The notes beneath the pieces are model-generated. The model did not search any database. It saw only the letters and a list, made by a program, of their open reading frames with translations, and had not been told where the DNA came from. Of a DNA stretch of 64,000 nt, positions 4,940 through 51,612 are shown one piece after another (within the stretch, counting starts at the first letter, position 1; the number at the start of each line of letters is the position of its first letter). The translations under genes were made by a program, and so were the position numbers. The DNA is taken from positions 1 to 64,000 of the forward strand of contig AP026130.1 in NCBI GenBank assembly GCA_030295235.1, in the 5' to 3' direction. Source of the DNA: Fistulifera solaris (Eukaryota).

Positions 4940-6956
4940 TTAGAGAATTAGGTCTCCATGATCCGTTCCATTTGCTGCAGGATGTCGAGCCAATCGTTCC
5001 GGTACTTTGTTCCCGGTGCTCTCCAAATATGCTTTCAAAGCAGCCATGATACCCGCGTCCTCTTCTGTTATAAGAGAAGTAGCCAAACCTTCTTTGCCAG
5101 CTCGACCTGTACGACCGATGCGATGCGTATAGTTTTCAATGCTTCGTGAGGGCAAATCGTAATTAATGACATGGGCAACATCTGGTACATCTAAACCACG
5201 TCCGGCAACGTCGGTTGCGACCATGACTACGCCTCCACGACGGAATGTCGCAAGACTCTCTTCTCGCTGCTCTTGCGTTTTGCCACCGTGAAGCACAACC
5301 ACTTGTCGTCCCGCGCGCTCAACAATTCGTCCAACATGCTCAGCGTGTTTCTTTTCGTTCACGAATACAATAACCTTTTCATACAAAAAAGCGAGGATTG
5401 CTGATTTGTTGCATCAAAGCCTTTTCTTTTAATGCAGGTGAAGCTAACCAGACTAGCTCTTGCACAATTCGAGAGTTTTTACCGGATTTTTGATCTCCTA
5501 TGCTTACCACAGCCGGATAGCGTAAGTAAGTTTGGGCAATCTTTTCAACTTCAGGTGGCATCGTAGCACTGAACATGGCTGTTATACGATAGCGAGCTAC
5601 AGCGTTCTGATTCTGCAAATCTTCTTGTTCTTGTTGATAAGCTCTTAGTTCATCATCCGCCGACTTAAGCATTCCTCCCATCGAGTCTAATATAGACTGA
5701 ACCTGAGGTAAAAATCCCATGTCTACCATTCGATCTGCTTCATCGAGCACGACATAACAGCACTGATTGAGCACCAAATACGCCATCTCGATGCAATCGT
5801 TGATTCTCCCGGGAGTTCCGACAACGATGTGCACCCCTTTGCGAACTTGCTGAGCCTGTTGTTGAATTGCTTGTCCGCCTACAATGGGACAGGTAATGAG
5901 ATTGGGCGTAAGACTCAGAAGTTTTCGAAACTCCCCATCGATTTGCAAAGCCAACTCTCGCGTCGGCGCGAGAACCAATGCCAAAGGTCCTTCCTCCGCT
6001 ACTCGCTGCAGCACAGTACATGGCAGTTGCATCAAATAGTGACAAAGTGGAACACCAAAGGCAACTGTCTTTCCACTTCCCGTCTCCGCAATACCGATCA
6101 TATCCCTTCTTTGTAATCCCACCGGAATTGCCTGTCGTTGAATCGGAGAAGGTTCTTTAAACTTCATGACGTCGTAAAGCGCCTTGATAAGAAGCGGATG
6201 GATGGAAGGGAGCCCTGGTGAAGCCTCTTCGAAAGATCGTAGTGGCGGGGGTGCTTGTCCTCCTCGTACGTGTATTTCGTAATTTTCCCGCAGAATTCTC
6301 CAATCTCGATTGGTCATTTGTGACAAGGGTTTCTGCATGGCCGATTCTCGATTTGTTACTTCTTTTCCAGTAATTTAACTTTTTGCTCTGGAATGACGGT
6401 GGCTTTACAAAGAAGGGAGTAGCGTACAGAGGATCATCGGCCTCAAAGGTGTCGTCCGTATCATCCCATTGAAATTTGAACATAGTTCTCTTTTTCGTCC
6501 CCCGCTGTTGCTTCTGTTTCGCTTCCATTTCTTGATTGACTGAAACATCCTTGACACCTAAATACGTTTCATTTATCACTGCGCGTTGTTTTTGCGTCAA
6601 ATTACTGCCGGCTGTTGTGGTTTTAGAGAGTAGGCTACTTTCCGCTGGCTCGGACTGTTTCTGTTTCTTAACGAGCTCAGAAGTTTCATCTTTGATTGCT
6701 GTCTGCTGTTTACGCTCTCGCTTCGGTACGTAAACTACTCTTCCGCTATTAATTGTATTATTCGAATGAGGTTTCTGCAATGGCTTTTCGAACTGCTGTC
6801 GTTCTAATTCTTTTGACGCAAGGCACGTTCAATAGCTCTTTGTTCGGCTCGTTCTTCTGCGCGTTTCGCCGCTTCTGCTGCTGCCAGCGCTTCCTTTCGT
6901 TCGGATTCAGATAACCCTTCTAATAAGGCAGGATCTATTAATGTTTCGGGTTGCAT
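4940..6956 (-). CDS. PRP28: DEAD-box RNA helicase PRP28/DDX23 (split by homopolymer frameshifts near 6810, 6370-6385, 5385)
   Basis: FKFQWDDTDDT, MTNRDWRILRENY, AETGSGKT, PTRELA, TPGR, DEAD, SAT, HRIGRTGRAG motifs across ORFs 6804/6157/5379/4940. Confidence 0.9.
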
Positions 6957-7568
6957 CTTGAACGTATCGCGTGTAATAAAGTCCAAAAATTCATTCATCA
7001 TCGTTGCTGCAGCAACGCCGTCGTCGCTCATAGAGAGTCGATTCATGACTGAAATACCGCAGTCGTGGTGAAAAGTCGTCTTCTCTTTGAGCCATAGTGA
7101 ATACAGAAAAACTATGCCTCCTCAACTTTTTGACATCATGAACCAGCGAGTGCCTTTCAAACGCATCGGAACGTCATTGAAATGTGAGTAGTGACAAATG
7201 TAAGATATTGTGCTGGAAAAAATAAGAAAGAGTAGTTCTCAAGGGTTAGATGCGCTCTCTGATTCTTCAATTCATGACTGAAATATGGGTCGTGGGTCGT
7301 GGGCAATCAGCGGTTTAAGTGCCGGTTTACTTAAAGAAAGGAGTACCGCACCGCCGCCATTGACACTGACGTCTTTCTGAATTTCTTGGACGAGAAAAGA
7401 GGTGATGCTTTTCTTTCGCAAACAAAAAATCTTGGTTGTCGTTCGTCGTAACATCAACTCGTTGACACTTATCACTTATCGTCTATCACTTTCAATCTTA
7501 CAGATTGACTTATTACTATCAAAGAAAATCAACCGACGAGACGTCGTTTTCACCGCAACACAGCCACG

Positions 7569-10500
7569 ATGCATTCGAAACGACGAATCAAACTTCTATC
7601 GATTCTTCTTCTTTCGATCGCTTCTGTAAGCGGTTTTACTTTGTCGAACCGACGACAATGGAGAGCTCCGCTTCTCTTCTCTGCTTCTCCAAACTATGAT
7701 AATACCGCTTCAAGCGAACGTCCTCCGCAGGTAGCTTTATTACTGCATCAAAGAGTCGACCCGATGGCGGCTCTGGGTTTGCTTTCGTCGAAAGGATATC
7801 AAGTTACTGCGTTTTATATTCAGCAAGATGCAAACATGCTGGATCAAAATGAGCTAGTTAATTTAGAACGACTTTGTGCACGCTACGGGGCTCCAATGCA
7901 AGTCATGGAGGCACCTCCGGTCGCAGGACCGCCCTCGGAATTCGTTTTGAGTGATGCGCGAGACAAAATCAAGCTTTTCCAGCAGAACGGATATGACTTT
8001 GATTTTGTAGCTACATGGTATCAAGTGTCGGTGCAACTAGGAGAAAGAGGTGATGGAATACAGTTATTGCAGCCGTCGGATGCAACTAATGGCGGCTCTT
8101 TTTTACTGTGTGTGCTAAACCGAGATCAATTGGATACCTTGGTGCCCAAGCAGAATGCCGCGTCGGTTTCAAAGCAAGAGAAGAATATATTCGGACAAAT
8201 TGTGGACTTCTTTGTACCCAAGGAAAAGAACGAATATTCAAGCTACGAGAAAACGAGCGTAGAAAATCGAGCCGCTCAGCAGCAAGCGTCAAATAGGAAT
8301 GATTACGAGGAACAAAAGGATCGTATGTCAAAAGATGCGATCACCGAGACGAATCCGATCAATACTCCTCAATCACCTGTCGGAAGGCCCTTGCAACCAT
8401 CGCCGTCTCCGCAGCAAACAGCAAATGCGGTGGCAGCTCATCGCAGACCAGCACCGCAAACTTTTTCAAAAGGTGTTTCGCCCTCTCCACGGACACAGGC
8501 TCTCGATCCCATTGTTGGAACTTCACGAGCCGACCCTAGTACCCGGTCGTCTTGGCGTGCGAGTCAAGGACCACCATCGGCGCTTGGCCCAGATTTTACG
8601 GGTTCAAACACATATCCTGGTGCAGATTCTGCAAGACGAGCACGTCCTTTAGATCCGTGGCGCACTGAACGGACGAGCAACCAGATGTTGCAAAGCGATA
8701 ACATGCAAAGCAGACCTTCGAGCAGTTGGGGAGCACGTAATGGACAATCCGCAACCGACGGGACCATTTCACTACAAAATGTTTATGGCAATAGCGGGAA
8801 TAGTGCTGTGTCTTCGTGGACGACGCGAAGTGAAGATCGCGGACAGGGTTTTTACGCGGACAAGCGTGTGGACGATGGTGGAGCTTCAATAACAGAAACG
8901 ACGAAGCCTCGCGACAATATACCACTATCCCGGCAGTACTCTACACCAAAGAAACGACCCGAACCGTTGATGCCCATTGATGCTCCACGAAGTGACGCAA
9001 TGTCAGCATGGACTGGATCAACAGTATCAAGTAGAAGCACCTCTAACTACCCAGAGCGCCCTCTGTCTGGTTCTTCGTCATGGGGCACAGATGCCAGGTC
9101 TAACAAAGACATTCGACCAGATCCTTTACAGCCCACAGATCCTCGTTCTACTGAGGCAGTATCAACGTGGACTGGGTCAACGTATTCGTCGTCAAGCAGA
9201 ATCAGCAATCAACAAAATCCTCTTCAACCGATCGATCCCCCACCAAGCGATGCAACATCTGTTTGGACTGGATCCACTCCTGGAAGGAGCAACGAAAGGA
9301 ATACAAATGACGACTTTTCAAGAATGCCAGTCAGTACAGAACTTCGAACGCGGGGAAAGTCTGACTACGTGTCCGATGTTAGTAGCCCATCCCAGAGGTC
9401 AATTAATGCCGATGTCTGACTAAACAAACAAAGGTAGAAGACTTTTACCAAGACCGTAGACCTCCCCAACCAGATAGTCGACAAGCGGAAACCTTGGAAC
9501 AAGACGATAGATGGGGACGGTCGGAATCTAATAATTTTTATGATTCTAACAATGTGGACGAACAACCCAATTGGAATGCCCCGCAACCGCAAGAAAAGCT
9601 TTACCAGGATCGCATTAACGGATCAGGACAAGATGTTACTGCTAAAAAATGGGAACCATTGGAAACCGAAGCATTATATGAGGCAGTGCAAGACGCTTTT
9701 GCGTATTTCTCTCAACTTGCACCGGAACAAGTTCGTAGCGATTTGAAACAACGGGGTGAATGGTACGAACTAGAACAGTTTCCTCCAGAAATTCTTGTTA
9801 CACCAAAGACTCCCGTAGAAGATTGTTCTTCGCGCGTTTATATTCAAACAGGGTTTTTTCAAGAGAATGGCGACTGGATTATGTACGGGTTCCAAGGCGA
9901 GACGGAATCCTTGGTCCTTCGTGGTTTGATTCAAATTCTTTCCGATATTACACAGGAAGTTTCTATTGACGCAGTGCTAGCTTTACCTCCCAACGAAATC
10001 GTAAAAGTCTTGGGTTTAGAACCAGCGTTACGGCAAAAAGAAAAGAGAGACATGATTGCAATCTGGAGCTCCCTGCAACAGCAAATTCAAGAAACACTCT
10101 TTGGATATACAAAAAATAAAAACGATTCGGAATACCAGCCGTCGATTATGAGAACCTCAATTCCGGGGGCCGAAAGCGCTAGGTCTGAAGCTCAGAAAGG
10201 ATGGGGTACAGAGTCGAGCACGAGCAATGATAAGAAGCAACAGAATACATCGGGATCATCTCCTCCTTTTGCTATCTGGGATTCGACCAGTTCAACAACT
10301 CCTTCGTCTTCGCCCTCGGATAGACTTTCCCGTCTTGACCGATTGTCGTCAACTTCCACCCCTAATTTTGCAGACGGTGCTCAAGTTGATGCTTCGGCAA
10401 ACAAAGCTCCATGGGATAACTGGACACCGCCGCCTACGCAGGACAAACAGTCAACATCACCGAATACTCCGTCTACAATGGGGACATCGATTCCAGGGGC

Positions 10501-11801
10501 AGGAAGTGGGAAGAAGGAGACCAAGAAAGGCTGGGGTCCGGGTTCCAGCACTAACAGCGATAAGAAACAATCGGATAGATCGGGCTCGACCCCGCCGTTT
10601 GCAATTTGGGATCCGACAAGTGCATCCGTTCAATCGTCTCCGTCGCCTAGTCCACCATCTTCTTCGTCCTCGGATAGACTTTCGCGTCTCGACAGATTGT
10701 CATCGCCGTCTACCCCTAAATTCGCTGACGGTGCTCAAGTTGATCCATCAGCAAACAAAGCTCCATGGGATAACTGGACACCGCCTTCTAAGCCAAATGG
10801 TCAATCGACATCGGGATCGTCCAGCTCAACAAGAAGTTCAATGTCTGGATCTAGAAATGCCGATTCCCAGATGCCGAAAAGTCAAAATGAATCGTACCGC
10901 GAGCGCAGCGCAACCTCTGACCAACAAAACGGTTGGAAAGGTCCAACCGATTTCGACCCGAATAGTCCCTCTGTGGCTACTTCAATTCCAGGAGCTGGCC
11001 AAGCAAAGCCAGAGGTAAAATCCGGTTGGAAGCCGAGTCGAGGACGATCTGAATCTGATGACAATAAAAGCGGTTCCAATAAAAGTGAGAACCAGCCTCC
11101 TTGGAACACATGGACACCGCCTGCGCAAGCGCCAGAAAAGACACAGCGTGACCAAAATCAACGAGCGCAACAGCAAAGCGGTTGGAGAGGCGACACAGAC
11201 TTCGATCCGTCGCAGCCATCTGTAGGAGCGTCAATTCCGGGAGCCGGTCAAGCGAAGCCGGAAGTAAAGTCCGGTTGGCAGCCAAGTCGCGGGAGATCTT
11301 CGTCCAGTAACAATAGCAACAATAATGACTTTGACAACAGTCAGACACAGCCTCCGTGGAATACATGGACACCACAAGCGCAAGGGCAACAAGATCCAAA
11401 AGGCGGCCAATATCGAAGAGCGCAACAGCAGAGTGATTGGACAGGCGATACCGACTTTGATCCATCACAACCATCAGTTGCTGCATCAATTCCGGGAGCC
11501 GGCCAAGCGATACCAGAGGTAAAATCCGGTTGGAAGCCGAGTCGAGGACGTTCCGAATCTGATGACAACAAAAGTGGCTCCAATAACAATGACAACCAGC
11601 CTCCCTGGAATACATGGTCTCCTCCATCAACACAGAACAGTGCGGGCGACGCTGGTACACTTGAAAACGACCCGGAAATGTACGGTATAGAGATTGATGA
11701 CTTTGACCCAACTTTGCCTTCAACTGGTAGTTCTATCCCAGGGAGCAGGAGGGAGCAAACCCACTGTGAAGAAGGGTTGGTCTCCCGGTGGACGTAAATA
11801 A
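7569..11801 (+). CDS. Large plastid-targeted protein: degenerate MnmA-like domain + SufE-like domain + Trp-motif repeat disordered regions (paralog A)
   Basis: Signal peptide ..VSG|F; MnmA-like at ~7725-8150; SufE-like (VEDCSSRV, LRGLIQIL) at ~9665-10095; ORFs 7569 and 9494 joined by a frameshift or an intron (e.g. 9330-9433); removing one G at ~11742 restores a C-terminus KKGWSPGGRK*. Confidence 0.7.
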
Positions 11802-11857
11802 GCATTTCGAACATTGCATTGCTTTGTCTTACTCTCTTGGTCTTTACAAGTAAGTTA

Positions 11858-14494
11858 TTAGTTCTGAGTAACATGCCGCATTTTCGGACTAAAATCTGGG
11901 TTCTTTAATCGAACGCTTCCAAAGATACGCTCCGGTAATGTTGATTCGTCATTACCCTCAAAGAGAAACCCCATGTCTACCACAAGCGTCTTCGCATATC
12001 CGAGAGCTAGTCGTACGACTCCCGTTGCAACCGGGTTACTCGCACAGTCTATGATGACCTCGAAAAACCGGTCACTTTGGACGTATAACTGGCGTAGCTT
12101 CTTCCCTAACACTGCAGGTGTTGAACCAACCGCTTTGCGCACTAAGAAATTACCCTGCACTATTTGCGGTACCAATTTGAAAGTTCGGTTGCGAAACTCG
12201 TCCGATGTGCCAAAAAAGAATTCGTTGCATAATTTGGACGAAGGCGTCCCATCTTCCCCGTTTATCAATCTCATGTCGTCGATTGCGTAGTAAAATACGC
12301 CGTGGTAATAAGGGGGTCCAGGAATGACAATGTTCACCACGAAAACAAACGGTGGCATATCACTCTTATGACCTTTTGATTTTACTTCTGCTTCCATGGC
12401 AAGCGCCAATTGCACACGTTCGCGTGGGTGGACACAAAAACCACTGTAAAGCGGTTGATCGACAGAAACTAGATCGACAGCAATCAAGCGACCAATGCTG
12501 GGGCCAGCATTAATTTTCTGGCCGTCGTCTTTATAATGTTTTCCACGCACGCGGAAAGAATTGGAATCGGGCTCAGCCCAACTATCCCTGGTCAGTGGCA
12601 TCGGCGTGCTTGCCAATCCAGCAAATTTCGATGCTGACGGATATTCATGAGTTGAAAAAGTGAAATCATAGTTCTGCAAGTCATCGTGAGCTTCATCTCC
12701 TTCATCGAGATCATCCGACCGTGCTTGGGCAATACCATGTTGAGAAGAAGGATGAAAACTAAGCATCGCAGCTGGCTCATCTCTGGCACAAGGTACAAAT
12801 CGGTCCGTGTCAATTGCATCACGGATATTTACAAGCTGCGACAGCACGGCGACCCCAAACGCTTCCGCATAACTTTGCCATGATAACATGGGGAGTGGTG
12901 TAGTCGGAACCCAGCCACGGGGGTCGACTTGAACAAAAGCTGTCACAAGGCATTCGTTCGGTCTTGGAACACTGCGACGGCTGGTAGAGGTTCTTTTGTG
13001 TGGTGCGATGGTAAAAACTTTGTGCATTTCCGCTCGCACAAAGAAGTCCTCGGGAGGACAATCAGAATGTTCGACAGACTCGTAACAAACAACGTAGCTT
13101 CCATCTTCCTCAAGCCGCCAGTATCGATAAAGGCAAAAGTCGCGCGGTGCAGTCCAAGACGGAAATAAGAATAGAGGCGAAAGTACCATATGGATAATGT
13201 CTGTGTTGTCGTCGACAGCTTCAACAATACGAAAAGTCAGCAAATACTCAGACTGGTTTTCAAGCAGCTGCTTGTGATCAAACGAAGCGACACAGCCTAC
13301 AGACATGAGGCACAGAAATGCGTCGACAGCTGACGTGCTTAAAACCTCATGGGATTTTATAGGTGCGCACGCTTTCCCATCTAACGAGATCGAACTCCGA
13401 AAGCAAGAACGAAACTTCTGTTCAACTTCAATGCGCTCTTCACGATATATTCGTAGAGCGGAAATGCCCGAGAATGTAGATGACCAGCCGCCGTGTAAAA
13501 GGCGCCACGCGTATTGATTTTGTTGTGACCAAGCCTGGTCTCTCCTAGACGGTGGTTTGGCTGTTTGCAACAAAGCATTTCTAGCCTTTCGACCGTCCGT
13601 TGCAAACAACTGTCCCCAAGTCGACTGCTGAACACAAAGAGACTCTTGAGATGCGATAATGCACTTCCTCCAAGTATTGGCCATCTCGTATTCCGAACTA
13701 GCAATCATAATTTCTTTTTTCTTTTCACCAGTCACGCTTTCTCCTAGTCCAACTGCAGCGCTCCCTCCACCAGCCGCAGCAGCTCCCACAAAAACTAATC
13801 CTGCCACTAAACCGAGACCAGCTGTAGCCACAGCTATAGCAGCAGTTCCGCCCGCGGCAGCTGCGATTTTCGTCCCTTGCCAGATTCGCTTACGGCTTCT
13901 CCGGATTCTCATCTTCTTATTTGTACGATAATCACGCAATAGTTCCTCCTCTTGTGCCTGTTGCTGAGGATCGATTCCTGTGGGGCCCTCCACACGGAAA
14001 CTGCGTTGTGATTTCGACCTATTGTGACCATCTTGGACGAACAGTTCGTTATCAAGCTTCGCTGATCTTCTACGACGGTTTCTGGGAGATTTGGGGGAAA
14101 GGTCGAAACTTCCTTCAAAGCTGGGAGTGAGCTCTAACTCGACAGAAGAGTCATCTCCACCATCATCTTCGACTTCAAATGATGTAATGCGTAAGCAGTA
14201 AATGAGATCCTTGTGCTTGCTTACAAAAGTTCCGAGACTTCGCAGTTCGATAGATCGATTATTCCTTTTAGTTTTCCATTTGTAATCGAATAGTATCGAA
14301 GCGAGTTGTCCGAATGCAAAACGAAACGTCGAGGAATGTATGGCTCAAGCCAGTTTCTACTTTTCTTGAGCATCTCTCCTGCGAAATTCGCATTGCAGTG
14401 TCAATAGGAATCCTTCATCAGCGCCGTCGCAATCATGGCAGTCCAGCTTACCTTCCAAAACAATATCGTCTTCTACATCGAGTAGCTCCGCCAT
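11858..14494 (-). CDS. EDR2-like PH-START-EDR2_C (DUF1336) lipid-binding protein (intron 14379-14451; frameshift ~14225)
   Basis: N-terminal LEGEMLKK..RRFVL..LRYY..LKGIIDL PH pattern; PRDFCLYRYWR..DGSY and QVDPRGW START motifs; FRVRGKHY, FKLVPQIV, ELPE-like LPERIFG C-terminal domain. Confidence 0.85.
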
Positions 14495-14809
14495 TTTATA
14501 AAACTATAATTTTAAGTGAAATTAAACGAAATTATGAAAAAGATAATGCTATTCAAAATTCAGAATGATACCTGGTGCGGAAAGCAAAATAATGACGCCG
14601 TCATGCGAGAAACGCAGCAACGCAAAGAACGCGACAAAAACGCGAAGCAAACGCGAAGTCTGCATTTTTGCGTTCTCGCCTCTTCACGTTGTAGGTAACT
14701 CGTGACTCGTCAGTCGGAAAGTACTGTTTTCTGCAGTCAACATCAAAAACAGATAAAGAAGCTAACATTCTATCGTACGGCTAATTTACTGCATTTACAT
14801 CACACGGCG

Positions 14810-17800
14810 TTAATTTCTTGGCGGCATCATGTCTCTTGGTCGCATGCGGTCGTCGTAAGGTCCATTATTAGGTCCCCTGCCTGGTCCAGGGGCGCGCCAT
14901 TCGTTATCGTCTCTGTAACGAAATCTCTCATCCTCGGGACGCCGTGGCCCCTCACGGCGATAATCATAATACTCTGACGGACCAGGTGGTGGTATTCGAC
15001 CTCCACGTTGTTGCCATCTGTCATTGTTCACTCTTCCATCCTCGTAGGGGGGAATAGGGCGGTCCCTCGTTATTGTACGGACGAGTTGGAATTATTCTAT
15101 CAACATACGGCTTTTGATCAGGTCGTCGAGGGGGACTCCTGTAACCTTCGGATCGCGACCTCGAAGAGTTTTCGTTGAAAGGTGATCGGCGTGTTTCGTA
15201 CCCTGGTTCGTTCGGGTCTCGAGCTCCCTGCCCTGCGCCGCCGAACGGCGGTCGACGTGATTCGTAACGTGGCTCGTTCAAGTCTCGAGCCCCCTGAGGT
15301 GTATTGCGAAAAGGAGGTCGTGGTCCATCCTCGGTTAAAGGAACTCGACGTGTTTCGTACCCCGGTTCATTCAAGTCTCGGGTTCCTTTTTCAGCACCAC
15401 GATATGGTGTTTTCGGCGTCGAAGTTCCTCGCGGCTCACTATTAAAACGGTCGGTTTCCTTTCCAGGTGCTGCCCGAGTTGTCGTCTTGGATGCCGGCCC
15501 TGAAGAACTTCCGTTAAAAGGTGGTCCTGAAAAATCCTTGTCTCCCTTTACTGGGTGATTGCGATTCTATAGTTGCTCTTTCGTAATTTCCCGTTACAAT
15601 ATCGAGGTACGTTCGGGGTCGAGAGGGACGATTCTTCTTTTGGAAGTTTGTCGAAGAAGCTTTATCATCAATACTTTCATCCGCCAGGGGATCAATTTTA
15701 GACTTCGCTTGCTTGAATTGCGATGACCGCCCAACATCTCGATCAGCGAACGGACCAGAAGCAGCACCACGACTTTCCGAAGCTGGCCCAGCTCGTGATC
15801 TTCTTTCGTTTCCTGTGTCTTTTAAAATTTCTGCATCAAATGACGTGTTTGCTTGGGTGAATTCCTTCGCTGTATACCCTTCTGGGCGTCCCCGAAAGGG
15901 CTCGCGTTCTCTAAAACCACTTTGTGGTCCGTCTCTTTGATCCACTGATCTGTAGCCTGATCCTCTGACAGATTGACCTCGAGGCTTGCGATTAACTTCT
16001 GTAGTAAAATCGCCTAATTTCGTTGGGAACGCGGAAGGCTCCCAGCTTGCACGGCCATTTTGGGGTCCCCAAGGAGTTTTGTCTTGGAAAGGTCCCACTG
16101 GAGACCCTCTAGATGGTGTCGAACCCGTCCATGAAGACATAGTGCCGCTAGCTGGAGAGAAATTTTGAGGTTGTAGAGTGACTCGCTCAGCGCCTGCTGT
16201 TGATGGCGTTGAACCAGTCCAAGGTGTTGATGAAAAAGTGTTTTGCGGTCCGACTCCAGCAGGGGAGAATGGGTTATTCACAGAAGAAACACCAGGTGTC
16301 TGTAAATTTTTAGGGGTAAAAGGAAACGGATCTATGCCATCGGAAGCTTTCCAAACACTGGACGTGCCGGGACTATTTGGATACAATGGATCGAGCCTTG
16401 CGCCACCAGCCGATGAGCCGGACGGCGTTCGCCACGGAGTACTCGGAACGGAGCGCGACGAGTCAGCAGGATTCTTTATTTTATAGCGATCTGACTCAAC
16501 AAAGTCCGGTCCGAGAGTCGAGCTTTTACTTGTGTCATTTTTGGGAATACTATCATACACCCTCCTCGAATTTCGGACGAAGTTCCCCGCTGATCCGGAG
16601 CTGGACGCTTTGAACGATGAAGAGATTACTTCTTGGGGCTGCAAAATATCCTTTTTCGCGGGAGATTCATTCCACCGCTGATCCGGTGCTTTACCAGAAA
16701 GTGGATTCAAAGAAGTTTGTGGGGATCGTGACGACCCGTTTTCCCAGGGCGGGCGTTCCGAGCTAGTAAGCGGCTTGAAATCACTTGTCGTTGGATCAGA
16801 TTTCCATGACGACTTGGGAGCAGTTTCAATCCCGAAAGCGGGACCGAGTGGTGGTTCGGTATCGGAGGAACCGACAGACTTGCCAGTAGTACTTGCAGCA
16901 TTTCGACGAGTGCTCTTGGCAAAAGAAGGTGTACTGGCAGCAGCGTCGAATTGTGCACCGTCAAGATTATTCGCAGTTGATGACGACAGTCGGTCAACAC
17001 GTAAGGGCCTCTCTGAGGACGACGAAGTCCCATTCGATCGGTCGTCACTCCTAGTGAAAGTGGATTGGGTACTGTCAGTCTTCTGCGGGGGAGGAGTCCA
17101 GTTGTCCCACGGTGCCTTATTTGCCGAAGCATCCACTTCTGCACCGTCCGCAAATTTAGGCGTAGACGCTGACGACAGTCGGTCGAGACGAGAAAGCCTA
17201 TCCGAGGGCGAAGTAGATGGCGGACTAGACGACGGAGACGATTGAACAGATGCACTCGTCGGATCCCAAATCGCAAACGGTGGAGCAGATTCCGATGTAC
17301 TCGATTGTTTATTTTCATTGTAAGAGCTGGTGCCCGAACCGGGCCCCCATCCTTTTTCACCGCAGGCTTTGCATTCCCGGCACCAGGAATTGAAGTGCCC
17401 ATTGTCGATGGCGCATCAGAGGAAGACGATTGAGTATTTTGCGGAGGTGGCGGTGTCCAATTATCCCAGGGAGCCTTATTTGCCGATGTATCCACTTCGG
17501 CACCGTCCGCAAATTTCGGCGTTGATGGCGAAGAAAGACGGTCGAGACGCGAAAGTCTATCCGAGGGCGAGGCGGACGGCGGACTAGTCGACGGAGACGA
17601 CTGAACTGATGCACTCGTAGGATCCCAAATCGCAAACGGCGGAGCTGAACCTGATGCATTCGACTGTTTATTGTCACTGGCAGTGCTCGACCCAGGACCC
17701 CACCCTTTCTTTGTGGCGGGCTTTGAGCTTCCTGCTCCCGGAATCGAAGTGCCCAAGGTAGAAGAACTATCAGACGATGTCGTCTGCGAGTTTTGCGGCG

Positions 17801-18704
17801 GCGGAGGTACCCAGTTATCCCATGGAGCTTTGTTTGCTGATGCATCTACTTCGGCACCATCAGCAAATTTAGGGTTGGACGGTGATGATAATCGGTCAAG
17901 ACGAGAAAGTCTATCCGAGGGCGAAGAAGATGGCGGACTAGACGACGGACTAGACGACGGAGATGCTTGCGCTGATGCACTTGTAGGATCCCAGATGGCA
18001 AACGGCGGAGCTGATCCCGACGTACTCGATTGGCTGTTACTACTGCTACCTGGACTCCATCCTTTCTTCACAGCCGGTTTTGAGCTTCCTGCCCCAGGAA
18101 TTGACGTCCCCATAGTCGAAGGCTCATAATCAGAGTCTTCATCGTTTCCATAAAGTGTCTCTTTGATTTGCTGCTGCAGCGCACTCCAAACAGAGCCCAT
18201 GTCGTTGCTGTCACTCTGACTCAAAGTAGATTGTAATCCTAACGCGTTTCCGATTTGGTAAGCTGGCAACGACATCACTTCATCAATAGGGACATCTTGC
18301 GTGATATCAGATAGAATTTGAATCAAACCACGAAGAACAGTGGCGTCAGTATCGCCCTGGAACCTAAAGATGATCCATTCTCCATTCTCTTGATAAAGAC
18401 CCGTTTGAATAGATACTTGCGAGGAACAACCCTTTACGGACGCTTGCGGTGTAACCAAGACTTCTGAAGGAAACTGTGCGAGCTCATACCATTCGCCTCG
18501 TTGCTTTAAATCGCTACGCACTTCTTCCGGTGGCAGTTGAGAGAAATATGCAAAAGCGTCCTGCACTGCATCTTGTAGTGCTTCGGCTTTCAAAGGCTGC
18601 CACTTTGCGAGAGAAATTAATGCATTATTACTCTTGATTATAAACGCACTCGAGAAACTGTGCGTTGCTGCTAAAAACAGCACGCAAAGCGGCGACGTCC
18701 TCAT
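14810..18704 (-). CDS. Large plastid-targeted protein: SufE-like domain + Trp-motif repeats + R/P/Y/G-rich tail (paralog B; frameshifts ~17355, ~15555, ~15050)
   Basis: Signal ..SSA|FII; SufE-like VKGCSSQV..DTDATVLRGLIQIL..LGLQSTLS at ~18587-18155; ORFs 16707, 15514, 15021 and 14810 chain through single-base homopolymer changes. Confidence 0.7.
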
Positions 18705-19259
18705 GTTCGGTCGTCAAATGTAGGAAGTAGAGTTGCAATGGCGATACGTACGCGTTGCGGCTGCCAAGTTGCACCTTGCACCCGCCACGAACTCATTCTT
18801 TTTCCAACTGCTGCCAGCGAGCCGGCTCGCGCTGGCGATGGTGTCAGTCAGTCATCCAACCGATGCGATCGTAGTAACCAAAATCCAACAGTCCATTTTC
18901 GTTCGCTACTTAGAGAAACGATGCCGTGAGTCGTCCAGTACGATTAAGAATGTAGTCGCGCGTCTCGGCATCGCTCGTCAGGAGAACAGTCAACCTGAGG
19001 GGCATAAGTAAATGTACTGGAGCTCGCGACCATCTCCCTAAAGTACACTGAATCTTATAGTCGACAAGTTATTATAGCGAAATATGTAGGATATAATACA
19101 TCATCAACTAGTTAAGCCCCTCGATTTCTATATTCATTATTCATTCACATGATCCGAGCCAAGGATCATTTATCACTTCTCAACGAAGAATAAATAGAGT
19201 GTATTTTCAAAAGCAAGGGAAACAGAGCGAGCCATTTCATGCTATAGATTAATGAAATA

Positions 19260-20988: not shown

Positions 20989-22098
20989 CTATGGAACCGC
21001 CAGACCATCGTCGTTGTACCATTCATGCGCACGAGGGATGTAAGGACCTCGCTTCCCCGCGAACGATACTTGTACCGTAGGAGCTGTAGGATGATCGGAA
21101 CGATACGCCGCAAAGTGCAGATGCGGTTCGGGTGAAAATCCGACACTTCCACTGGCCCCTATTACTTGTCCTGCTTGAACTTGGTCTCCAACTGAAACCG
21201 AAGCGGATTGAATATGCACGTATTCGACAAAAAGCGGTTTATCAGGAGGTGTATTCTTTACCTGAAGTAAAATGGAATTCCAGTGAAACAAATTCGTGAC
21301 AGCGATTCCGGTACACTCATGATGATCTTGTACTTGCACCACAACAGCGTCTGCAACGGCAAGCAATGGCGTACCCACAGGGCATTGAAAATCAATAGCA
21401 TGTAAATTTCCGGAAAAGAAATGAGTTAAATGGCCATGGATTCCTTGGGTACACAAAAACGACGGATTCGTCGAATCTGTTCGCAAAGGAAAAGCAAGAA
21501 TTAAATCATGATAGACATCGGAAGGATCGGGATGCTGATTCCAGGGTTGAACGTCGCTTTCCAGTCGCAGTTGTTCTAAGTCAATCTGAGAGGTCGGTTT
21601 GTCAGTCTCTTCTTGTGGTAGGAGAACACACAAATGAGCAAATGTTTCTGGCGGACAAAGTACAATAAGTGTAGTAACCTGATTCGTTTCACCCTCATCA
21701 TTCGTCGTTGAACCTTGCTCTAAGAGACGACCTTGAGCATCTCGTAATCGCGTTTCGTACACCGTAATATACGCAACAAGACTGTATTGATTGAGATTAC
21801 AGACCGTCAAAGTTCCGGATTCTGGATCGATCGCTATATCCGGAATGTCGGACAGCCCGTCCGCGTCAAAATCATCCGCGTTCACTGCTTCCCACTCTAA
21901 AATCCAGTCTGATGATTCCGGATGAGCTATATGACATCCTGGACCGGCGTCTGCAACGAAATTATCCGAACAGGGGGAAGAAACTTTTGGTTTTTCTTCA
22001 TTGCCGCCCGACGCGAGTTGTGATTCCTCCCGATATACATACGGCGCTTTGAACTTCTTTTGGCTTGACTTTTTCGACTTCGATTTTGGTTTCGGCAT
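20989..22098 (-). CDS. Peptidase M23 (LysM/lysostaphin-type metallo-endopeptidase fold) domain protein
   Basis: HAIDF (HxxxD), PVGTPLLAVADAVV, EYVH, VSVGDQVQAGQVIGASGSVGFSPEPHLHF (HxH). Confidence 0.85.
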   Translation of the reverse strand: MPKPKSKSKKSSQKKFKAPYVYREESQLASGGNEEKPKVSSPCSDNFVADAGPGCHIAHPESSDWILEWEAVNADDFDADGLSDIPDIAIDPESGTLTVCNLNQYSLVAYITVYETRLRDAQGRLLEQGSTTNDEGETNQVTTLIVLCPPETFAHLCVLLPQEETDKPTSQIDLEQLRLESDVQPWNQHPDPSDVYHDLILAFPLRTDSTNPSFLCTQGIHGHLTHFFSGNLHAIDFQCPVGTPLLAVADAVVVQVQDHHECTGIAVTNLFHWNSILLQVKNTPPDKPLFVEYVHIQSASVSVGDQVQAGQVIGASGSVGFSPEPHLHFAAYRSDHPTAPTVQVSFAGKRGPYIPRAHEWYNDDGLAVP

Positions 22099-22164
22099 AC
22101 TTAATAACAATCAAATGAAGAGCAAACATTTGCTTCGTACTTGTTTATAGAACAAGCAATGAAA

Positions 22165-28572: not shown

Positions 28573-29724
28573 ATGATGAACCATTCAACGCCGACAAACG
28601 ATGGGACCCGCAACGACGAAGGAAGCAAAGAGACCTCACGCATCGGCGCAACGGCGTCCGACCAGAGTGCCAGGCTGCCGTCCTCTCCCCCAAAGAAAGG
28701 GGCAGCAGCGAACAAAGTCCACCAAGGCGAAATCCACTGTAACAAAGAGCCCGAAAAAGCTTGCACCGTTGCCCCCGCGGGCATTGAATGCTTACAATAT
28801 TTTCTTTCGAGAAGAGAGAAAGAGGTGGATTGACCAACGAAGCGAACCTGGAAAACAAATGGAGTCGAAAGCAAAGACGGGCTCGACATTCCCCCCGTTC
28901 GCTCAGATGGGAAAAATCATTGGACAGAAATGGAGAGAACTACCGGCTATCGAAAAGGAAAAGTTCGAGAAGCTGGCGAAGGAGGACATGCAACGATATC
29001 GTAAAGCAATTGAGGACTACAAAAATAATTTAATACAGGAGACAGAAAAGAGTGCGGAAACTCTCGGAAAAGATACTGTCAGCTCAGCGTGGAATTATCG
29101 CTCATCTTCTTCTGAGGATGACATCGAGGAAGATACGAAACCAGAGGCAACGGACGAGTCGCATCATGCACAGCCGATCACAAACTGGCCATCCGATGCG
29201 CTACTGCCGACCATGCAAGGAACCGCTTCATCACAAGCTTATTACCCTTTAAGGAACGAAGTTCCAAATCTGACACAAATTTACTCACAGACACAGATGC
29301 ATAACATGCTAAATGAAGTCCTCCAGGTCTCGCACGATGCGAACATGCTTGTCTATTCACAACAACGGCAGCAGCAACAGCAGTTGCTGTCAATGCTTCT
29401 TCCGAGAGTGACTTTACAGCAACCACAAGTAAATCAACAGCTTCAGCGTAACCACCAGGATCTGCTGCTATTGCAGCTGACCAGAGAACATCAACAACAG
29501 GCTCACCCCCGTTGGGTCTGCTTCACGATGGATCCCCAATGACAAACCAACTTTTGCAGGCCCAGCAGTGGCAATCTGCAGCACAAACACCCTCACCGTT
29601 TCCAGCAGAACTCGACATGCAGCTACGTGCGTCAGCTCTTTTGAGTCAGTTATCACAGCAGCAACAGCAACAAAAAGAAAATGCAGAGACAAAAGCGCCC
29701 CCGCCTCCACCCTTTCCAAAATAG
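28573..29724 (+). CDS. HMG-box transcription factor with Gln-rich C-terminus (start uncertain; frameshift ~29505)
   Basis: PPRALNAYNIFFREER...FAQMGKIIGQKWRELPAIEKEKFEKLAKEDMQRY. Confidence 0.85.
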
Positions 29725-32992: not shown

Positions 32993-33860
32993 TAAAAGAG
33001 CTTGCTGCGCGAAATCTTCTGCATAGCCTCGCCTATTTCCCGGCGCTCATCACGATCTTCAATCTGCCTTTGAATACTTGCGTCAATGGAACGCCTCTTT
33101 CTCTATACTCAGCTCTTCTACTAAGTAAAAAATAACGCTTCTTGTTGTTTTTTGGCGTTTTTATCTCTGTTGTGGCGAAAGCATTTGAAAAACATTAATC
33201 GTTCGTTCAAGGACGAACCCTGCAAAGAGTGACTACCGGTCACGAATTATGAGTCATTCACGCATTTCCTACGCTATAATTCCGTCAGCATTGATCTTGT
33301 TAGCGAACTGAGCTTTGCAATTGCTTGTTAGGCGACAGATTTAGAGAGTGGTGTCAGCAAAGACGGAAGATGTGATAGTAGGAAGACTTATCCTTATTTC
33401 CGTCTCGGTATACTTTGAACATAATTCAAGTAAGTGGTACATGCAAGCACATCACAGAAATAGCTGGTCACACTTGATTGGTTCCAGTAACGTTGATTTA
33501 CTAAATAGCTTTGACAATGCATTATGCATTCACAAAAAAACTGTGCTAGTTTCGGGACTGATTTTAGTCATGGTGCCTCGTCGGTTATTTGCTTACGTCA
33601 TTTCTTGTGCCGGTCTGCCGCTCTCACTTTTTTCTCGCGTGCCTCGAAAATCACGTCATTCATTTACATCGTCGCGAAAACAGTTGCCCCAAGCCCCAAC
33701 AGCGCTATAGAATCGACTACTGTATCACAAGCAAAGCAAGCAAAAATAATACTTGCATCTTGTTTAACCCACAAGTAGACCTAGTTGTGTGCCAGCAGGT
33801 TCTATTTTCTGAATTCGAATTGAGGGAGGACTTTTACGTTACCGACACAAACTAGCAATT

Positions 33861-34868
33861 ATGCGATTCTCTCGTATCATCACTGCAACTCTAAGTGTTG
33901 CCTCTTCACGAGCATTTACAATTCCTCGTAACACCTTCTCTTCGTCGACGCGCTTGTTTCAAAGCGTTCCTAAACTGACCGATCCTACATTGCTCATGGA
34001 TCAAGTTGATGTCTTTATTTTCGATTGCGATGGAGTCATCTGGAGAGGAGATTCTCTAATTGACGGTATCCCTGACACGCTCGAGAAATTGCGAGCCGCC
34101 GGCAAGCGCTTGTTCTTTGTTACCAACAACTCGACCAAATCACGTAAAGGATACAAAAAGAAGTTTGATTCGCTCGGTTTGTCAAATGTTCCTGCGGAAG
34201 AGATTTTCTCGAGTTCATTCGCAGCGGCGGCGTACTTGGAAAAAACGCAATTCGCAGCCACGAACAAGAAAGTCTATGTCATTGGAGAGGTTGGTATCTG
34301 CGAAGAACTAGATTTGATTGGTGTTCCGTATTTGGGAGGTCCTGCCGACAAGGATTCGGTGGCCGATATGGGACCGGGAGGCATGTTGCATGTCGATGAA
34401 TCGGTGGGTGCCGTGGTAGTCGGTTTTGATCGCCACGTCAACTATTACAAAATTCAATACGCGCAATTATGCATCAATGAATTGGGGGCGGAGTTCATTG
34501 CGACGAATCTCGATGCTGTGACGCACTTGACCGACGCTCAAGAATGGGCTGGAAATGGCAGTATGGTCGGTGCGATCAAAGGATGCACTGGAAAAGAACC
34601 AACGGTAGTTGGCAAACCGAGTCCGCTTATGATCGATTACATGGAGCAAAAGTTTGGGTTTGACCGCTCACGAATCTGCATGGTGGGTGATCGCTTGGAT
34701 ACGGATGTTTTGTTTGGAAAAGACAACGGCTTGAAGAGCTTGCTCGTTTTGAGCGGCGTTACATCGGAAGAAAAACTTTTGTCTCCCGACAACAAGATCA
34801 AACCGGACTATTACGCTGAAACTATCAATGATTTCTTTTCGCCGGTTCCAGCTGAATCGAAGGCATAA
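33861..34868 (+). CDS. PGP: 2-phosphoglycolate phosphatase (HAD class IIA), organelle-targeted
   Basis: FDCDGVIWRG, FVTNNSTKSR, IATNLDAVTH, GKPSP, MVGDRLDTD, LVLSGVT. Confidence 0.92.
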   Translation: MRFSRIITATLSVASSRAFTIPRNTFSSSTRLFQSVPKLTDPTLLMDQVDVFIFDCDGVIWRGDSLIDGIPDTLEKLRAAGKRLFFVTNNSTKSRKGYKKKFDSLGLSNVPAEEIFSSSFAAAAYLEKTQFAATNKKVYVIGEVGICEELDLIGVPYLGGPADKDSVADMGPGGMLHVDESVGAVVVGFDRHVNYYKIQYAQLCINELGAEFIATNLDAVTHLTDAQEWAGNGSMVGAIKGCTGKEPTVVGKPSPLMIDYMEQKFGFDRSRICMVGDRLDTDVLFGKDNGLKSLLVLSGVTSEEKLLSPDNKIKPDYYAETINDFFSPVPAESKA

Positions 34869-35493
34869 ATTAACCATGCGTTAATCAAATGTATGTGCTG
34901 TCAGTGCCTATGAATGTGTTTAATACCTTCATGTGCTAGAGTTCTAATGAAGCTGTTACTCCGTTTTATCCATTACTTTGCAACTTGCACCGTAGCCATG
35001 AAGTTCCATGGACTTGGCTTTTGTCCCAATTTTATTTTCCATTTTTTAATTATAAAAAATTCATGCCATAACTCACGACTCACCTAACACGAGTGTGTCT
35101 GTGCTTCGTCAGAAAATTGTCGCTCTTATGAATTCCGGAAGAAAAACGCCATCTGGCAGAAGTCGGACTCTACAGCAAAATGTCGTACGTTTCTGCCGGA
35201 CTAATGAACATCGACGAATGGTTTTGATGCATGACGACACAGTCTGTCCAGTGTAGACCGCACTGTAGTTTGACTGTAAAAACGGCAGCTGCCCGATGAC
35301 GATGCCGTTTTGCAAATTCTCCTTTCGGCCAATCGCAGATGGTCGCGCAAGTTCCGACCCGCAAAAGTATCTTCTGCGCGCAGATGATTTTGATGGGATC
35401 CATCGTCGAAATCGACGCCCTTGTTTTTATTTATTCCCCATTTTCATTGCTTTGCTTGCCTCACTTGCAAGCAATAGACTTATTTCAATCACC

Positions 35494-36324
35494 ATGATAG
35501 ACGAAAACGACGCAGTAGTTCCCTATATCGATCATTCGAGGGATACGCCGAAACCAGGGCTTCGCGATCGTGCAAAGACTTGGTTTTTGAATCGTTTGTA
35601 CGGAATGCTCGAAGATGCCGACGCTCACAACATTGTTCATATTATTTCATGGCAAAAACACAGTCGCAGTTTCGTTATTCACGACAACAAGAAACTACAG
35701 GCGATTCTTCCTAATTATTTTAATATCACCAAAACTTCGAGCTTTCTGAGGCAGCTCAATATTTACGGCTTCTCTCGCATCGTTCACGGACCGGATGCTG
35801 GAGGGTACTATCACGAACGCTTTCTGCGGGGTATGAGATGGCTGGCCCAAACGATTACGCCCTTCAAGGTAAAAGGAACAGGAATTCGTCAAAAATCAAA
35901 GCCCCATCCTGATTTTAGCATCATGGCACCGATCATTCTTCCGTCTTCCAAGCAGCATGAGGCACAGTCTCACTTGACTCAAGAAGTAGCGCCTCAGGGG
36001 TCGTCACTACCGCGCTCGCTTTCGGTTGTTTCAAACGAGGAAGATCACTGGATGGTTCCGGCTTTCAACATGCCTATGCTCGGATCAGTCCAAGGCAGTC
36101 TGAGTCATCTGGTGGACACCACGCCGCTGATGGAAGAGTTGATCTCCGGAGAACCACAAACTGTTGATCATGTCGACTATTCCAAAACGACAGAAGAACT
36201 TGACTGGCATTGGGAAGAAGATGATGTGCAATCTGCCATGTATGACTTAGTTCATAAGCCTGCTGGCATCAGTTTTGACCGATTTCTACAAGATCTGGCT
36301 TTTGAAGAAAGGAATCAGAATTAG
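35494..36324 (+). CDS. Heat-shock-factor (HSF) DNA-binding domain transcription factor
   Basis: FLNRLYGML..IISW..SFVIHD..LPNYF..SSFLRQLNIYGFSR..YYHERFLRG. Confidence 0.9.
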   Translation: MIDENDAVVPYIDHSRDTPKPGLRDRAKTWFLNRLYGMLEDADAHNIVHIISWQKHSRSFVIHDNKKLQAILPNYFNITKTSSFLRQLNIYGFSRIVHGPDAGGYYHERFLRGMRWLAQTITPFKVKGTGIRQKSKPHPDFSIMAPIILPSSKQHEAQSHLTQEVAPQGSSLPRSLSVVSNEEDHWMVPAFNMPMLGSVQGSLSHLVDTTPLMEELISGEPQTVDHVDYSKTTEELDWHWEEDDVQSAMYDLVHKPAGISFDRFLQDLAFEERNQN

Positions 36325-38661: not shown

Positions 38662-38999
38662 GAAATACCCTACACACTCTCGGACCTCTCTTGATGCTTA
38701 TGTGATAAGTCTGAAAGTGTAGATGAATGATGAACGTCGAATTACCAACGATGATGTTTCTAATTAATTACCTGGTATGTAGTCTACTCACTCGCCGTCG
38801 ATGCAATGAGACGCAGAAACCGCAAGATGAAAACGGCGGGTACCGCTGCGTCGAAAACATATACTTCTTGTCCTTGAACGAAAAACAATCAAGATACCTT
38901 TCGACCTTGCTTTCGACAAGATAAACACATGTAGTTGATGTGTATCATTATTTAAACATAGCTTGCATAGTTTCATAAAGAGAGAAGGAACCGTATTGC

Positions 39000-45776: not shown

Positions 45777-46199
45777 GATTGTTTTATTTTTTGTTTCTTC
45801 CTTCGCGGGGGCCGACAGGTGGATTTCAGTACAGCGACCACGAATAGTACCGTTGATAATTATCGATGAATCGATTGGGAATGTTATAAGCAATAAGCAA
45901 CAACGAAAGAGGATTTTGACGGTTGTGTATTACTGAGTAATTGCATCGATCGCACGCGTTTCCATACAACGCGCATAAGAAACAATGCGAGCTACAGTGT
46001 GTCCCGTAACAAGAATTAATGGCTATGTTTCAAAAAGTAGACTACTGACTGCAAGATTGCAAATTAGTTAGTCACGAGTTGTGACTTTCCCGACTCAAAC
46101 TTTAGGGCGAATAGGAAATACCTAGTTTACAAACGGTGATAGAAATAGATTTCGTAATTTGTTTTTGCAGTGCATTGCTGCATTTAGCACGCTCTACAA

Positions 46200-51425: not shown

Positions 51426-51612
51426 ACAAGGTGTCTTGGCTAGCAATTTTGATTAAGGACTTAATGGAATCTCAGTCCCGTATAATGAATCGACCGCATT
51501 ATTTTCGATGATGACGAAGACGACGAACGGATGATGATGAAGAACGTTTGATTCAAGATGACATGATCCTTCCATCGCGGTGACTTGTATTATATAAAAA
51601 ACCATCTTATCA

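Follow-up and report, generated by a model that had tools for sequence, protein, structure and literature searches.

Paralogous SufE-domain proteins with arrays of tryptophan modules in the diatom Fistulifera solaris: candidate scaffold or adaptor proteins of the plastid

A stretch of 64,000 nucleotides from the diatom Fistulifera solaris (contig AP026130.1 of assembly GCA_030295235.1, positions 1 to 64,000 of the forward strand; the window in what follows) carries two related genes, here called A and B, in which a SufE domain is joined to very long repeat regions rich in tryptophan. The question raised by this locus is what such proteins might do. The reading that we favour, with slightly less than even confidence, is that A and B are multivalent proteins that work in the plastid stroma as scaffolds or adaptors. 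It is drawn from the combination of a plastid-type presequence, a SufE domain that keeps its cysteine and lacks the release arginine, a dead enzyme stump, about 1100 residues of predicted disorder per protein and arrays of constrained aromatic motifs.

According to this proposal, A and B would be transcribed nuclear genes that arose when the gene for a diatom plastid SufE-MnmA tRNA thiouridylase was duplicated and decayed. The enzyme half would have been lost, leaving a catalytically dead PP-loop stump in A and none in B; the SufE domain would have been retained, with fast divergence and later purifying selection, and the proteins would have gained long stretches of disorder that carry rows of conserved modules centred on Trp. 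Each such array may offer a series of stickers to which a multimeric partner, or another array, binds. With its Cys kept and its release Arg gone, the SufE domain would have ceased to work as a sulfur shuttle capable of turnover; it could instead be a docking end, or an end that senses redox state or persulfide, possibly holding the plastid cysteine desulfurase SufS. The analysis shows that the genes are intact, which domains they encode, which SufE residues have degenerated, that disorder is predicted, that the modules are constrained and that the architecture is confined to this lineage; from these, plastid location, a scaffold role and docking to SufS are inferred.

Integrity and transcripts of the two genes

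Three genes lie within positions 7569-18704: A on the forward strand, and a START + EDR2_C gene and B on the reverse strand. The first-pass annotation had placed A at 7569-11801 (+) and B at 14810-18704 (-), and start and stop codons are found at these positions. It had also called them paralogs, and the two proteins are 61% identical over 488 amino acids (aa).

7569..11801, + strand: gene A; ATG at 7569, TAA at 11799-11801; uninterrupted open reading frame (ORF) of ~1405 codons after allowing for insertions or deletions (indels) at 9414 and 11741
14810..18704, - strand: gene B; ATG at 18704, TAA at 14812-14810; uninterrupted ORF of 1297 codons after allowing for indels at 17352, 15544 and 15047; equals GAX20532.1

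In the frames of the window, A is split into two pieces and a shifted tail, and B into four pieces. All five frame breaks are single-base indels located in short homopolymer runs. Logan contigs of four public runs were compared with window positions 7300-19000, and the indels at 9414 (+C), 11741 (-1), 15047 (-1) and 15544 (-1) are absent from the contigs of all four; that at 17352 (+1) is absent from the contigs of two runs, the other two having no contig there that shows the difference. The public protein models P0031 (A, 1348 aa, truncated at the N-terminus) and P0032 (B, 1297 aa) are continuous across all breaks. Because the independent contigs and the public models lack the five indels, both ORFs are intact and free of introns, and the frameshifts come from errors in this assembly. 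Introns were ruled out as the cause of the frame breaks, since each break is a one-base indel corrected in these contigs and models. The end predicted for A after frameshift correction, KKGWSPGGRK, is exactly that of P0031.

Further single-base differences between the window and the short-read contigs occur at 7413, 14224/14225 and 14664, the second of them inside the EDR2-like ORF. The indel pattern is that of an unpolished long-read assembly, and gene calls made on the window will be fragmented. The two public models of gene A, P0002 (GAX10400.1) and P0031, begin at internal Met codons, so that the signal peptide and the first part of the PP-loop remnant described below are missing from them; in the window the reading frame is uninterrupted from the ATG at 7569 onwards, and one RNA-derived contig extends as far as 7458.

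Contigs of the runs X3 and X4 join position 14377 to 14451, skipping a minus-strand intron of 73 nt with GT..AG ends (14378-14450) that lies a short way upstream of the EDR2-like ORF. As the contigs lack this intron of the neighbouring gene, the two runs contain spliced RNA. Their contigs cover parts of A (e.g. 8760-9235, 9338-10780 and 11017-11542) and of B (15228-15966 and 16846-17211), so that both genes are present in RNA-derived assemblies, which implies nothing about expression level. Over 7458-9367, X3 contigs differ from gene A at 43-63 positions per ~870-890 bases (~93-95% identity) and include a three-base deletion at 7603, inside the signal-peptide codons; these contigs are probably the other homoeolog of A. 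If they are transcripts of that homoeolog, both subgenome copies are expressed and in frame.

F. solaris is described as allodiploid or allopolyploid (PMC13276009, PMC5935921). A cluster look-up identified B as GAX20532.1 (FisN_3Hh619) and returned GAX10400.1 (FisN_3Lh623), a protein of 1329 aa that is ~90% identical to A, both from F. solaris; the H and L of the locus tags would fit homoeologs. Between the H and L homoeologs of A all 36 Trp residues are kept (36/36), and the disordered parts are 84-90% identical. In addition, 89% of the sampled words of positions 9000-18800 are present in X1, a run labelled as wetland metagenome, where a near-identical organism occurs.

Folded domains, presequences and descent

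The SufE domains, the presequences and a third folded part, found in A, have the following positions.

9650..10099, + strand: SufE domain of A; VEDCSSRV, Cys kept; Gly72->Asp, Asp100->Glu, Arg145->Glu, Gly148->Asp (numbering of alignment A1)
18153..18602, - strand: SufE domain of B; VKGCSSQV, Cys aligned with Cys51 of E. coli SufE; GDTDA kept; Arg145->Asp, Gly148->Asp
7569..7634, + strand: predicted signal peptide of A, aa 1-22 (...ASVSG); Phe at +1, then a basic, Ser/Thr-rich stretch free of acidic residues; read by eye
18645..18704, - strand: predicted signal peptide of B, aa 1-20 (...SFSSA); Phe at +1; read by eye
7728..8150, + strand: dead MnmA PP-loop (HUP) remnant of A, from BLASTP, alignment A2, a sub-threshold Pfam match and AlphaFold2/Foldseek

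A SufE-like domain with a retained Cys had been noticed from the letters of the two genes, and the Pfam family PF02657 recognizes it in both proteins, with 39.2 bits (E 7.1e-10) in A and 54.7 bits (E 1.1e-14) in B against a cut-off of 27; the motifs VEDCSSRV and VKGCSSQV are where they were reported. The comparison with SufE structures then proposed as a check was made with an AlphaFold2 model of B residues 21-320, in which most of the SufE domain (residues ~20-165 of the model) has a predicted local distance difference test (pLDDT) score above 90. The top Foldseek matches to this model are E. coli SufE 1MZG (template modelling (TM) score 0.73), Salmonella SufE 3G0M and CsdE 5EEP, at E 1e-6 to 1e-5 and TM scores to the target of 0.72-0.77; for the SufE and CsdE structures overall the TM scores normalised to the target are 0.67-0.77, with 20-24% identity in the Foldseek alignments. 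The fold was modelled for B only, and the SufE domain of A is 68% identical to that of B over 136 aligned columns. The highest identity to any homolog in alignment A1 is 33%, and the dN/dS ratio (nonsynonymous to synonymous divergence) between the domains of A and B is 0.16.

The persulfide Cys of the V-x-G-C-x-S-x-V loop is invariant in all 27 rows of alignment A1. B retains this motif and GDTDA, and in A a Gly is replaced by Asp just before the Cys and the Asp of the GDSDA motif by Glu. In the C-terminal RSNG loop, an Arg and a Gly that are each present in 25 of the 25 other SufE sequences are Asp and Asp in B and Glu and Asp in A. Since both paralogs share this loss, it predates their duplication. 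The earlier idea that the repeats recruit a sulfur-carrier domain thus stands in part: a SufE domain with its Cys is there, but both proteins have lost these two residues of the loop. The lost Arg corresponds to R119 of E. coli SufE by alignment position, as extrapolated from the Cys51 alignment and not from a direct structural alignment. The E. coli R119A variant binds SufS more tightly (0.30 vs 5.2 uM) and receives persulfide, with no desulfurase turnover; it fails in vivo, and R119K rescues (PMC11408855, 2024).

A signal peptide followed by Phe had been noted in each protein, and by eye it is seen at both N-termini, MHSKRRIKLLSILLLSIASVSG and MRTSPLCVLFLAATHSFSSA, each followed directly by F, with no acidic residue in the next 20 positions. 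The plastid signal of diatoms consists of a signal peptide, an aromatic residue (Phe) at +1 and a basic, acid-free, transit-like stretch. By eye, the presequences of A and B look like this type, and both proteins are probably directed to the plastid. Several SufE-MnmA fusion proteins (P0013, P0025 and relatives) also begin with a signal peptide and then Phe.

Between the presequence and the first disordered region of A, BLASTP matches aa 54-190 to the PP-loop domain of MnmA in two SufE-MnmA fusions (E 2e-8). In the multiple alignment A2 the PP-loop motif SGGVDS is replaced by HQRVDP and VALLLSGGVDSS by VALLLHQRVDPM; PDxLCN has Ser in place of its catalytic Cys, and FDFVATGHYA reads FDFVATWYQV. 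There are two internal deletions of ~12 and ~15 residues, and the remnant ends after the QSYFLC..L.Q.QL block, the region of the second Cys and both C-terminal tRNA-binding domains being gone. AlphaFold2 predicts an alpha/beta domain with moderate confidence (pLDDT 68, predicted TM score 0.68). B has no MnmA part at all. The first-pass annotation was right about the combination of SufE with repeats and overlooked both the dead MnmA remnant of A and the descent from SufE-MnmA that it suggests.

Fusions of this kind (P0009, P0012, P0013, P0022, P0025 and P0037-P0155), several of which came up among the weak SufE matches of the HMMER search described below, have the domains PF02657, PF03054 and PF20259/PF20258. 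Among the 120 best-listed relatives of P0009, 118 carry PF02657 and PF03054 together, and the named carriers among the matches listed are diatoms, namely Pseudo-nitzschia, Nitzschia, Cylindrotheca, Seminavis, Thalassiosira, Cyclotella, Chaetoceros and others. By this listing the fusion is the rule in diatoms, which suggests that their plastid tRNA 2-thiouridylase carries its own SufE as sulfur acceptor. The same has been proposed for the apicoplast MnmA, on which a SufE-like N-terminal domain was noted earlier (PMC10219651).

A maximum-likelihood tree was built from 57 SufE domains: 31 from fusions (every fourth of P0037-P0155 and five further fusions, keeping those with both motifs), 23 from stand-alone proteins and three query rows. 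The H and L copies of A and B form one clade with full support in the Shimodaira-Hasegawa-like approximate likelihood ratio test (SH-aLRT 100). The tree is used as a consistency check only, because the branch is long and the support for its attachment to the fusions is weak; descent from SufE-MnmA is carried mainly by the remnant in A. On these grounds the A/B pair likely descends from a diatom plastid SufE-MnmA fusion gene. Neither a second homoeolog of B nor an intact SufE-MnmA of F. solaris turned up among the proteins of 709-2258 aa or the best 120 listed, where no search was dedicated to them.

Tryptophan modules and their distribution

The remaining parts of both proteins are as follows.

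8151..9649, + strand: disordered region 1 of A; three S/T-W-T-G-S-T motifs (9006-9023, 9165-9182, 9261-9278); indel at 9414
10142..10786, + strand: long Trp modules of A; A1 10142-10432, A2 10472-10786
10922..11626, + strand: three short modules of A; GW[KRT]G.TDFDP ... SIPGAGQAKPEVKSGW[KQ]PSRG ... PPWNTW[TS]P
11726..11801, + strand: terminal half-module of A and stop; SIPG / AGGSKPTVKKGWSPGGRK; indel at 11741
17089..18119, - strand: three long Trp modules of B; B1 18119-17802, B2 17762-17448, B3 17408-17089; indel at 17352 inside B3
15400..17088, - strand: disordered region 2 of B, basic and rich in Phe and Trp; SWTGST motif at 16134-16117
14810..15399, - strand: C-terminal region of B, rich in Arg, Tyr and Pro; three EP[GR]YE[ST]RR repeats (15368-15345, 15275-15252, 15209-15186)

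The long modules of B measure ~105-106 residues each and are spaced by ~119 residues; Tandem Repeats Finder gives for B a period of 359, 2.4 copies and a score of 1013. The long modules of both proteins follow the pattern S.MGTSIPG, 9 residues, KGW[SG]P, ~20 residues, PPFAIWD.TS, a Ser/Pro spacer and SDRLSRLDRLSS.S.P.FADGA.VD.SANKAPWDNW.PP. In the seven copies aligned (three of B and two of each A homoeolog), 56 of 112 columns are invariant. The module counts agree with those first given: two long modules in A and three in B, and three extra short ones with GW[KQ]PSRG and PWNTW in A. The S/T-W-T-G-S-T motifs are common to both proteins.

Pairwise comparison of the modules (10 pairs) gave dS of 0.68-1.60, dN of 0.07-0.19 and dN/dS of 0.08-0.25, ratios that are rough as dS is near saturation. 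Because dS is nearly saturated while dN is low, the copies are of long standing and kept alike by selection at the protein level; recent conversion does not account for their similarity. By these estimates the modules are under strong purifying selection, about as constrained as the SufE domain. In the AlphaFold2 model of B the module region lies mostly below a pLDDT of 50; the Trp repeat regions are thus predicted to be disordered, with Trp motifs that are conserved and constrained. In the non-domain parts 54 of 2176 residues are Trp (2.5%), twice the share found in 24 further long ORFs from the window (1.26%; the binomial p of 3.7e-6 takes no account of the dependence between repeat copies). 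Ser, Thr, Pro, Gly, Asn and Gln account for 52% of each protein, and there are SPSSSP-type runs and W-x-x-W motifs. The long modules have net charge 0 and an isoelectric point (pI) of 6.2; the pI is 5.1 for A overall and 8.9 for mature B, whose last 297 residues have a pI of 9.7 with 44 Arg, 16 Tyr and the three EPGYETRR-type repeats. A complex prediction with four copies of one long module, in which the alignment was not used, gave a score of 0.00 and a mark of 0.32 and counts neither way.

A HMMER search of 1.84 billion representative proteins with residues 1-451 of B returned only B itself (P0001) and the A homoeolog (P0002) at E <1e-10. The other 28 matches (E 5e-8 to 1e-3) are confined to query residues 35-196, that is, to the SufE domain. 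Among proteins of 709-2258 aa only three match the SufE part of B, and all are these genes. The module arrays had no match among PDB sequences at E up to 10, and the ESM Atlas, searched with the modules of B and the short modules of A, yielded no usable match. A word-based homolog search with B residues 1-451 over lengths of 365-1164 found nothing, low-complexity words having probably swamped it. As the protein, PDB and Atlas searches gave no other carrier, the architecture of A and B is, as far as these sequence collections reach, known only from F. solaris.

The database entries of both proteins are filed as hypothetical protein or Fe-S metabolism associated domain-containing protein. The four locus tags and accessions are not mentioned in the literature searched nor in the supplementary file searched of PMC5935921, and a search for SufE together with pyrenoid gave, among the matches listed, nothing relevant by title or abstract start. 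The earlier remark that no description of this architecture was known agrees with these searches by identifier and by titles and abstract starts. What is new here is a SufE domain fused to constrained disordered repeat arrays, with the SufE itself degenerate; the sequences are public but unannotated, and SufE fusions as such are known.

Possible functions and neighbouring genes

The comparison with known systems bears on each of the functions that can be proposed. SufE-MnmA fusions share with A and B the SufE Cys loop and the signal peptide followed by Phe, and their PP-loop domain aligns with the N-terminal domain of A. They differ in that the order is reversed in A, where the remnant precedes SufE, in that they keep the Arg and Gly of the loop (GRNDG), both lost in A and B, and in the ~1100 residues of Trp-motif disorder that A and B add. 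SufE and CsdE of E. coli (1MZG, 5EEP) have the same fold, family score and Cys51 equivalent, but in A and B the equivalent of R119 is acidic, the next conserved Gly is Asp and the domain sits within a mostly disordered protein of 1300-1400 aa. SUFE1 (SufE-BolA) and SUFE3 (SufE-NadA) are likewise plastid SufE proteins fused to another module; in those proteins a canonical SufE is joined to a client or regulator that is folded (PMC8003979), whereas A and B join a degenerate SufE to disordered repeats.

Such fusions lend some plausibility to the view that A and B are still working sulfur carriers, whose SufE would accept persulfide from the plastid SufS and pass it on to specific acceptors, the disordered tails only tethering or regulating it. 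Precedents are SUFE1-BolA and SUFE3-NadA (PMC8003979) and the apicoplast MnmA (PMC10219651); moreover, the Cys and its loop are kept, V-x-G-C-x-S-x-V and GDTDA are intact in B, and the dN/dS of 0.16 speaks for purifying selection on the domain. We nevertheless consider this view improbable: an Arg invariant in 25 of 25 other sequences is acidic in both paralogs, and the corresponding E. coli variant R119A has no turnover and fails in vivo. Of the client MnmA, A has only a dead remnant and B has nothing, and a carrier function gives no reason for ~1100 residues of constrained Trp repeats. A secreted or cell-surface role (mucilage, adhesion or association with the frustule), with SufE co-opted as a structural module, is slightly more improbable. 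It would agree with the N-terminal signal peptide of both proteins, with the W-x-x-W motifs, and with the 52% of Ser, Thr, Pro, Gly, Asn and Gln and the SPSSSP-type runs, which resemble glycosylated extracellular proteins; diatom wall proteins can be Trp-rich. Against it are the Phe at +1 of both predicted cleavage sites and the basic, acid-free stretch that follows, together with the likely descent of the folded domains from plastid-type proteins with the same signature. Nor was a pentalysine or RXL-type motif noticed on reading the sequences, which was not a dedicated search. Least probable of all is that A and B seed a different plastid condensate, e.g. one associated with RNA or the nucleoid, through the Arg/Tyr-rich tail of B. 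The composition of that tail (pI 9.7, 44 Arg, 16 Tyr, three EPGYETRR repeats) and an ancestry in a tRNA-modifying enzyme would suit such a role, but the tRNA-binding C-terminal domains of MnmA are absent, A is acidic and has no such tail, and Pfam finds no RNA-binding domain at E up to 0.1.

The first-pass annotation had suggested recruitment to the pyrenoid, the model being PYCO1 of Phaeodactylum tricornutum. F. solaris and P. tricornutum, both pennate diatoms, are fairly close relatives. PYCO1 binds the Rubisco small subunit through the sticker KWSPRGGS, which cannot do without its Trp; this residue packs against the GGS of an adjacent sticker. Self-association depends on a second motif, GTGYNP, and a third, (A/S)EW(G/A)SMN, is for the large subunit; the protein, with pI 10.03, has six repeats, five of them of ~80 residues, and is mostly disordered (PMC10288592). 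It has no BLAST homologs in other algae and none outside Phaeodactylum, and the portion seen of a 2026 review names no other diatom linker (PMC13655443). A and B resemble PYCO1 in being probably plastid-directed, mostly disordered (by prediction), lineage-specific tandem-repeat proteins that repeat a Lys-Trp-Ser/Gly-Pro motif rich in Gly and Ser, with an invariant Trp. They differ from it in having folded domains, PYCO1 being described as a mostly disordered repeat protein, in their longer modules with three Trp motifs and a near-invariant block of 45 residues, and in showing no detectable homology and no GTGYNP.

We judge it unlikely that A and/or B belong to the pyrenoid and use their Trp modules to bind and condense form ID Rubisco as functional analogues of PYCO1, with SufE as an anchored client or docking domain. 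The motif K-K-G-W-[SG]-P-G-S-[SG] loosely resembles the sticker KWSPRGGS, and WTGST faintly recalls (A/S)EW(G/A)SMN. The array is multivalent, with six K[KS/Q]GW motifs in A and three in B; the modules are predicted to be disordered, their Trp are constrained and the presequences are of the plastid type. Because the characterised linkers are lineage-specific, a Fistulifera linker is expected to look new, which leaves room for this view and is not evidence for it. The motif of A and B is K[KS]GW[SGKQ]P and not KWSP; it is found five times in A and three times in B, with no exact KWSP and no GYNP in either protein, and chance alone can produce a resemblance this short (four or five residues). 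The net charge of 0 and pI of ~6.2 of the modules, with a pI of 5.1 for A, are wrong for a PYCO1-like coacervate, and each module, with a period of ~118 or ~85 aa, holds three different Trp motifs. PDB chains showed no similarity (E up to 10), nor did the 1.84-billion library beyond the two genes and SufE-domain matches, the presence of PYCO1 being unconfirmed in both collections, and SufE is not mentioned in the two diatom pyrenoid papers searched. A loose motif likeness is the only link to the pyrenoid or Rubisco that was found; what speaks against one is that the modules are neutral, that the Tyr motif is missing and that homology is lacking.

A further-reaching form of this idea, to which we give a little less credence, is that F. 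solaris builds its pyrenoid matrix or another Rubisco condensate with linkers recycled from a tRNA-thiolation enzyme, with stickers for Rubisco or for themselves that arose independently of PYCO1 and a Cys-bearing, release-defective SufE that holds the desulfurase or senses redox state or persulfide. If true, sulfur or redox status would be coupled to condensate assembly, and a eukaryotic alga would have a CcmM-like combination of pseudo-enzyme and repeat array. CcmM of beta-carboxysomes joins a gamma-carbonic anhydrase N-terminal domain to folded repeats that resemble the Rubisco small subunit. The likeness lies in an N-terminal (pseudo)enzyme domain followed by a partner-binding repeat array, and A and B share no sequence or fold relation with CcmM. 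PYCO1 is the only characterised diatom Rubisco linker in the papers examined, and pyrenoid assembly in other diatoms is unexplained; A and B are concrete, testable candidates, and Cas9 editing has been reported for F. solaris (PMC13276009).

Several points also weigh against the plastid scaffold or adaptor that we favour. The modules are neutral and A is acidic, unlike the characterised linker PYCO1; the dN/dS values of the modules are rough, and the prediction of their disorder was built on a shallow alignment. Plastid targeting was read by eye from the presequence, and in B the transit-like stretch spans only ~14 residues before the SufE domain. The Arg loss could equally mean the loss of all contact with SufS, and A alters two further near-invariant SufE positions. 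As for descent, PF03054 reaches only 15.2 bits on A (E 0.018, aa 140-192 only), below its cut-off of 20.6. Foldseek lists MnmA structures (2DER, 2DET, 2HMA, 2DEU) for the remnant among weak matches (E ~5e-4, TM 0.43-0.47) mixed with other Rossmann-like folds, and because this result is weak and mixed it is the sequence alignment that carries the claim of a remnant. The branch of the A/B clade measures 2.24 changes per site and adjoins the fusion clade with an SH-aLRT of only 77. Finally, the RNA label of the runs X2-X5 is a guess of the tool, and DNA carry-over is possible. Apart from the question of the pyrenoid, A and B clearly illustrate how an enzyme gene, probably SufE-MnmA, was converted into one for a very large protein, mostly disordered by prediction, whose disordered modules are as constrained as its folded domain; their SufE domains are naturally changed at the position whose Ala variant traps the SufS complex in E. 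coli.

The gene between A and B and the other ORFs of the window with Pfam matches are listed below. The splicing of the intron at 14378-14450 and the indel at 14224 suggest that the true N-terminus of the EDR2-like protein lies further upstream. The two neighbouring GNAT ORFs are possibly a tandem duplicate, and the nine ORFs of other families have no evident link to A and B.

11858-14344, - strand: ORF of the START + EDR2_C gene; Pfam E 1.3e-15 and 2.3e-57
44865-45929, - strand: GNAT acetyltransferase; Pfam E 6e-11
46856-48121, - strand: GNAT acetyltransferase; Pfam E 1e-8
5379-6374: DEAD helicase
20989-22110: M23 peptidase
28580-29542: HMG box
33813-34868: HAD hydrolase
35269-36324: HSF DNA-binding
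37765-38697: CYTH
48436-50241: MRS2-like Mg transporter
51598-52746: Methyltransf_28
61236-62093: MtN3/SWEET

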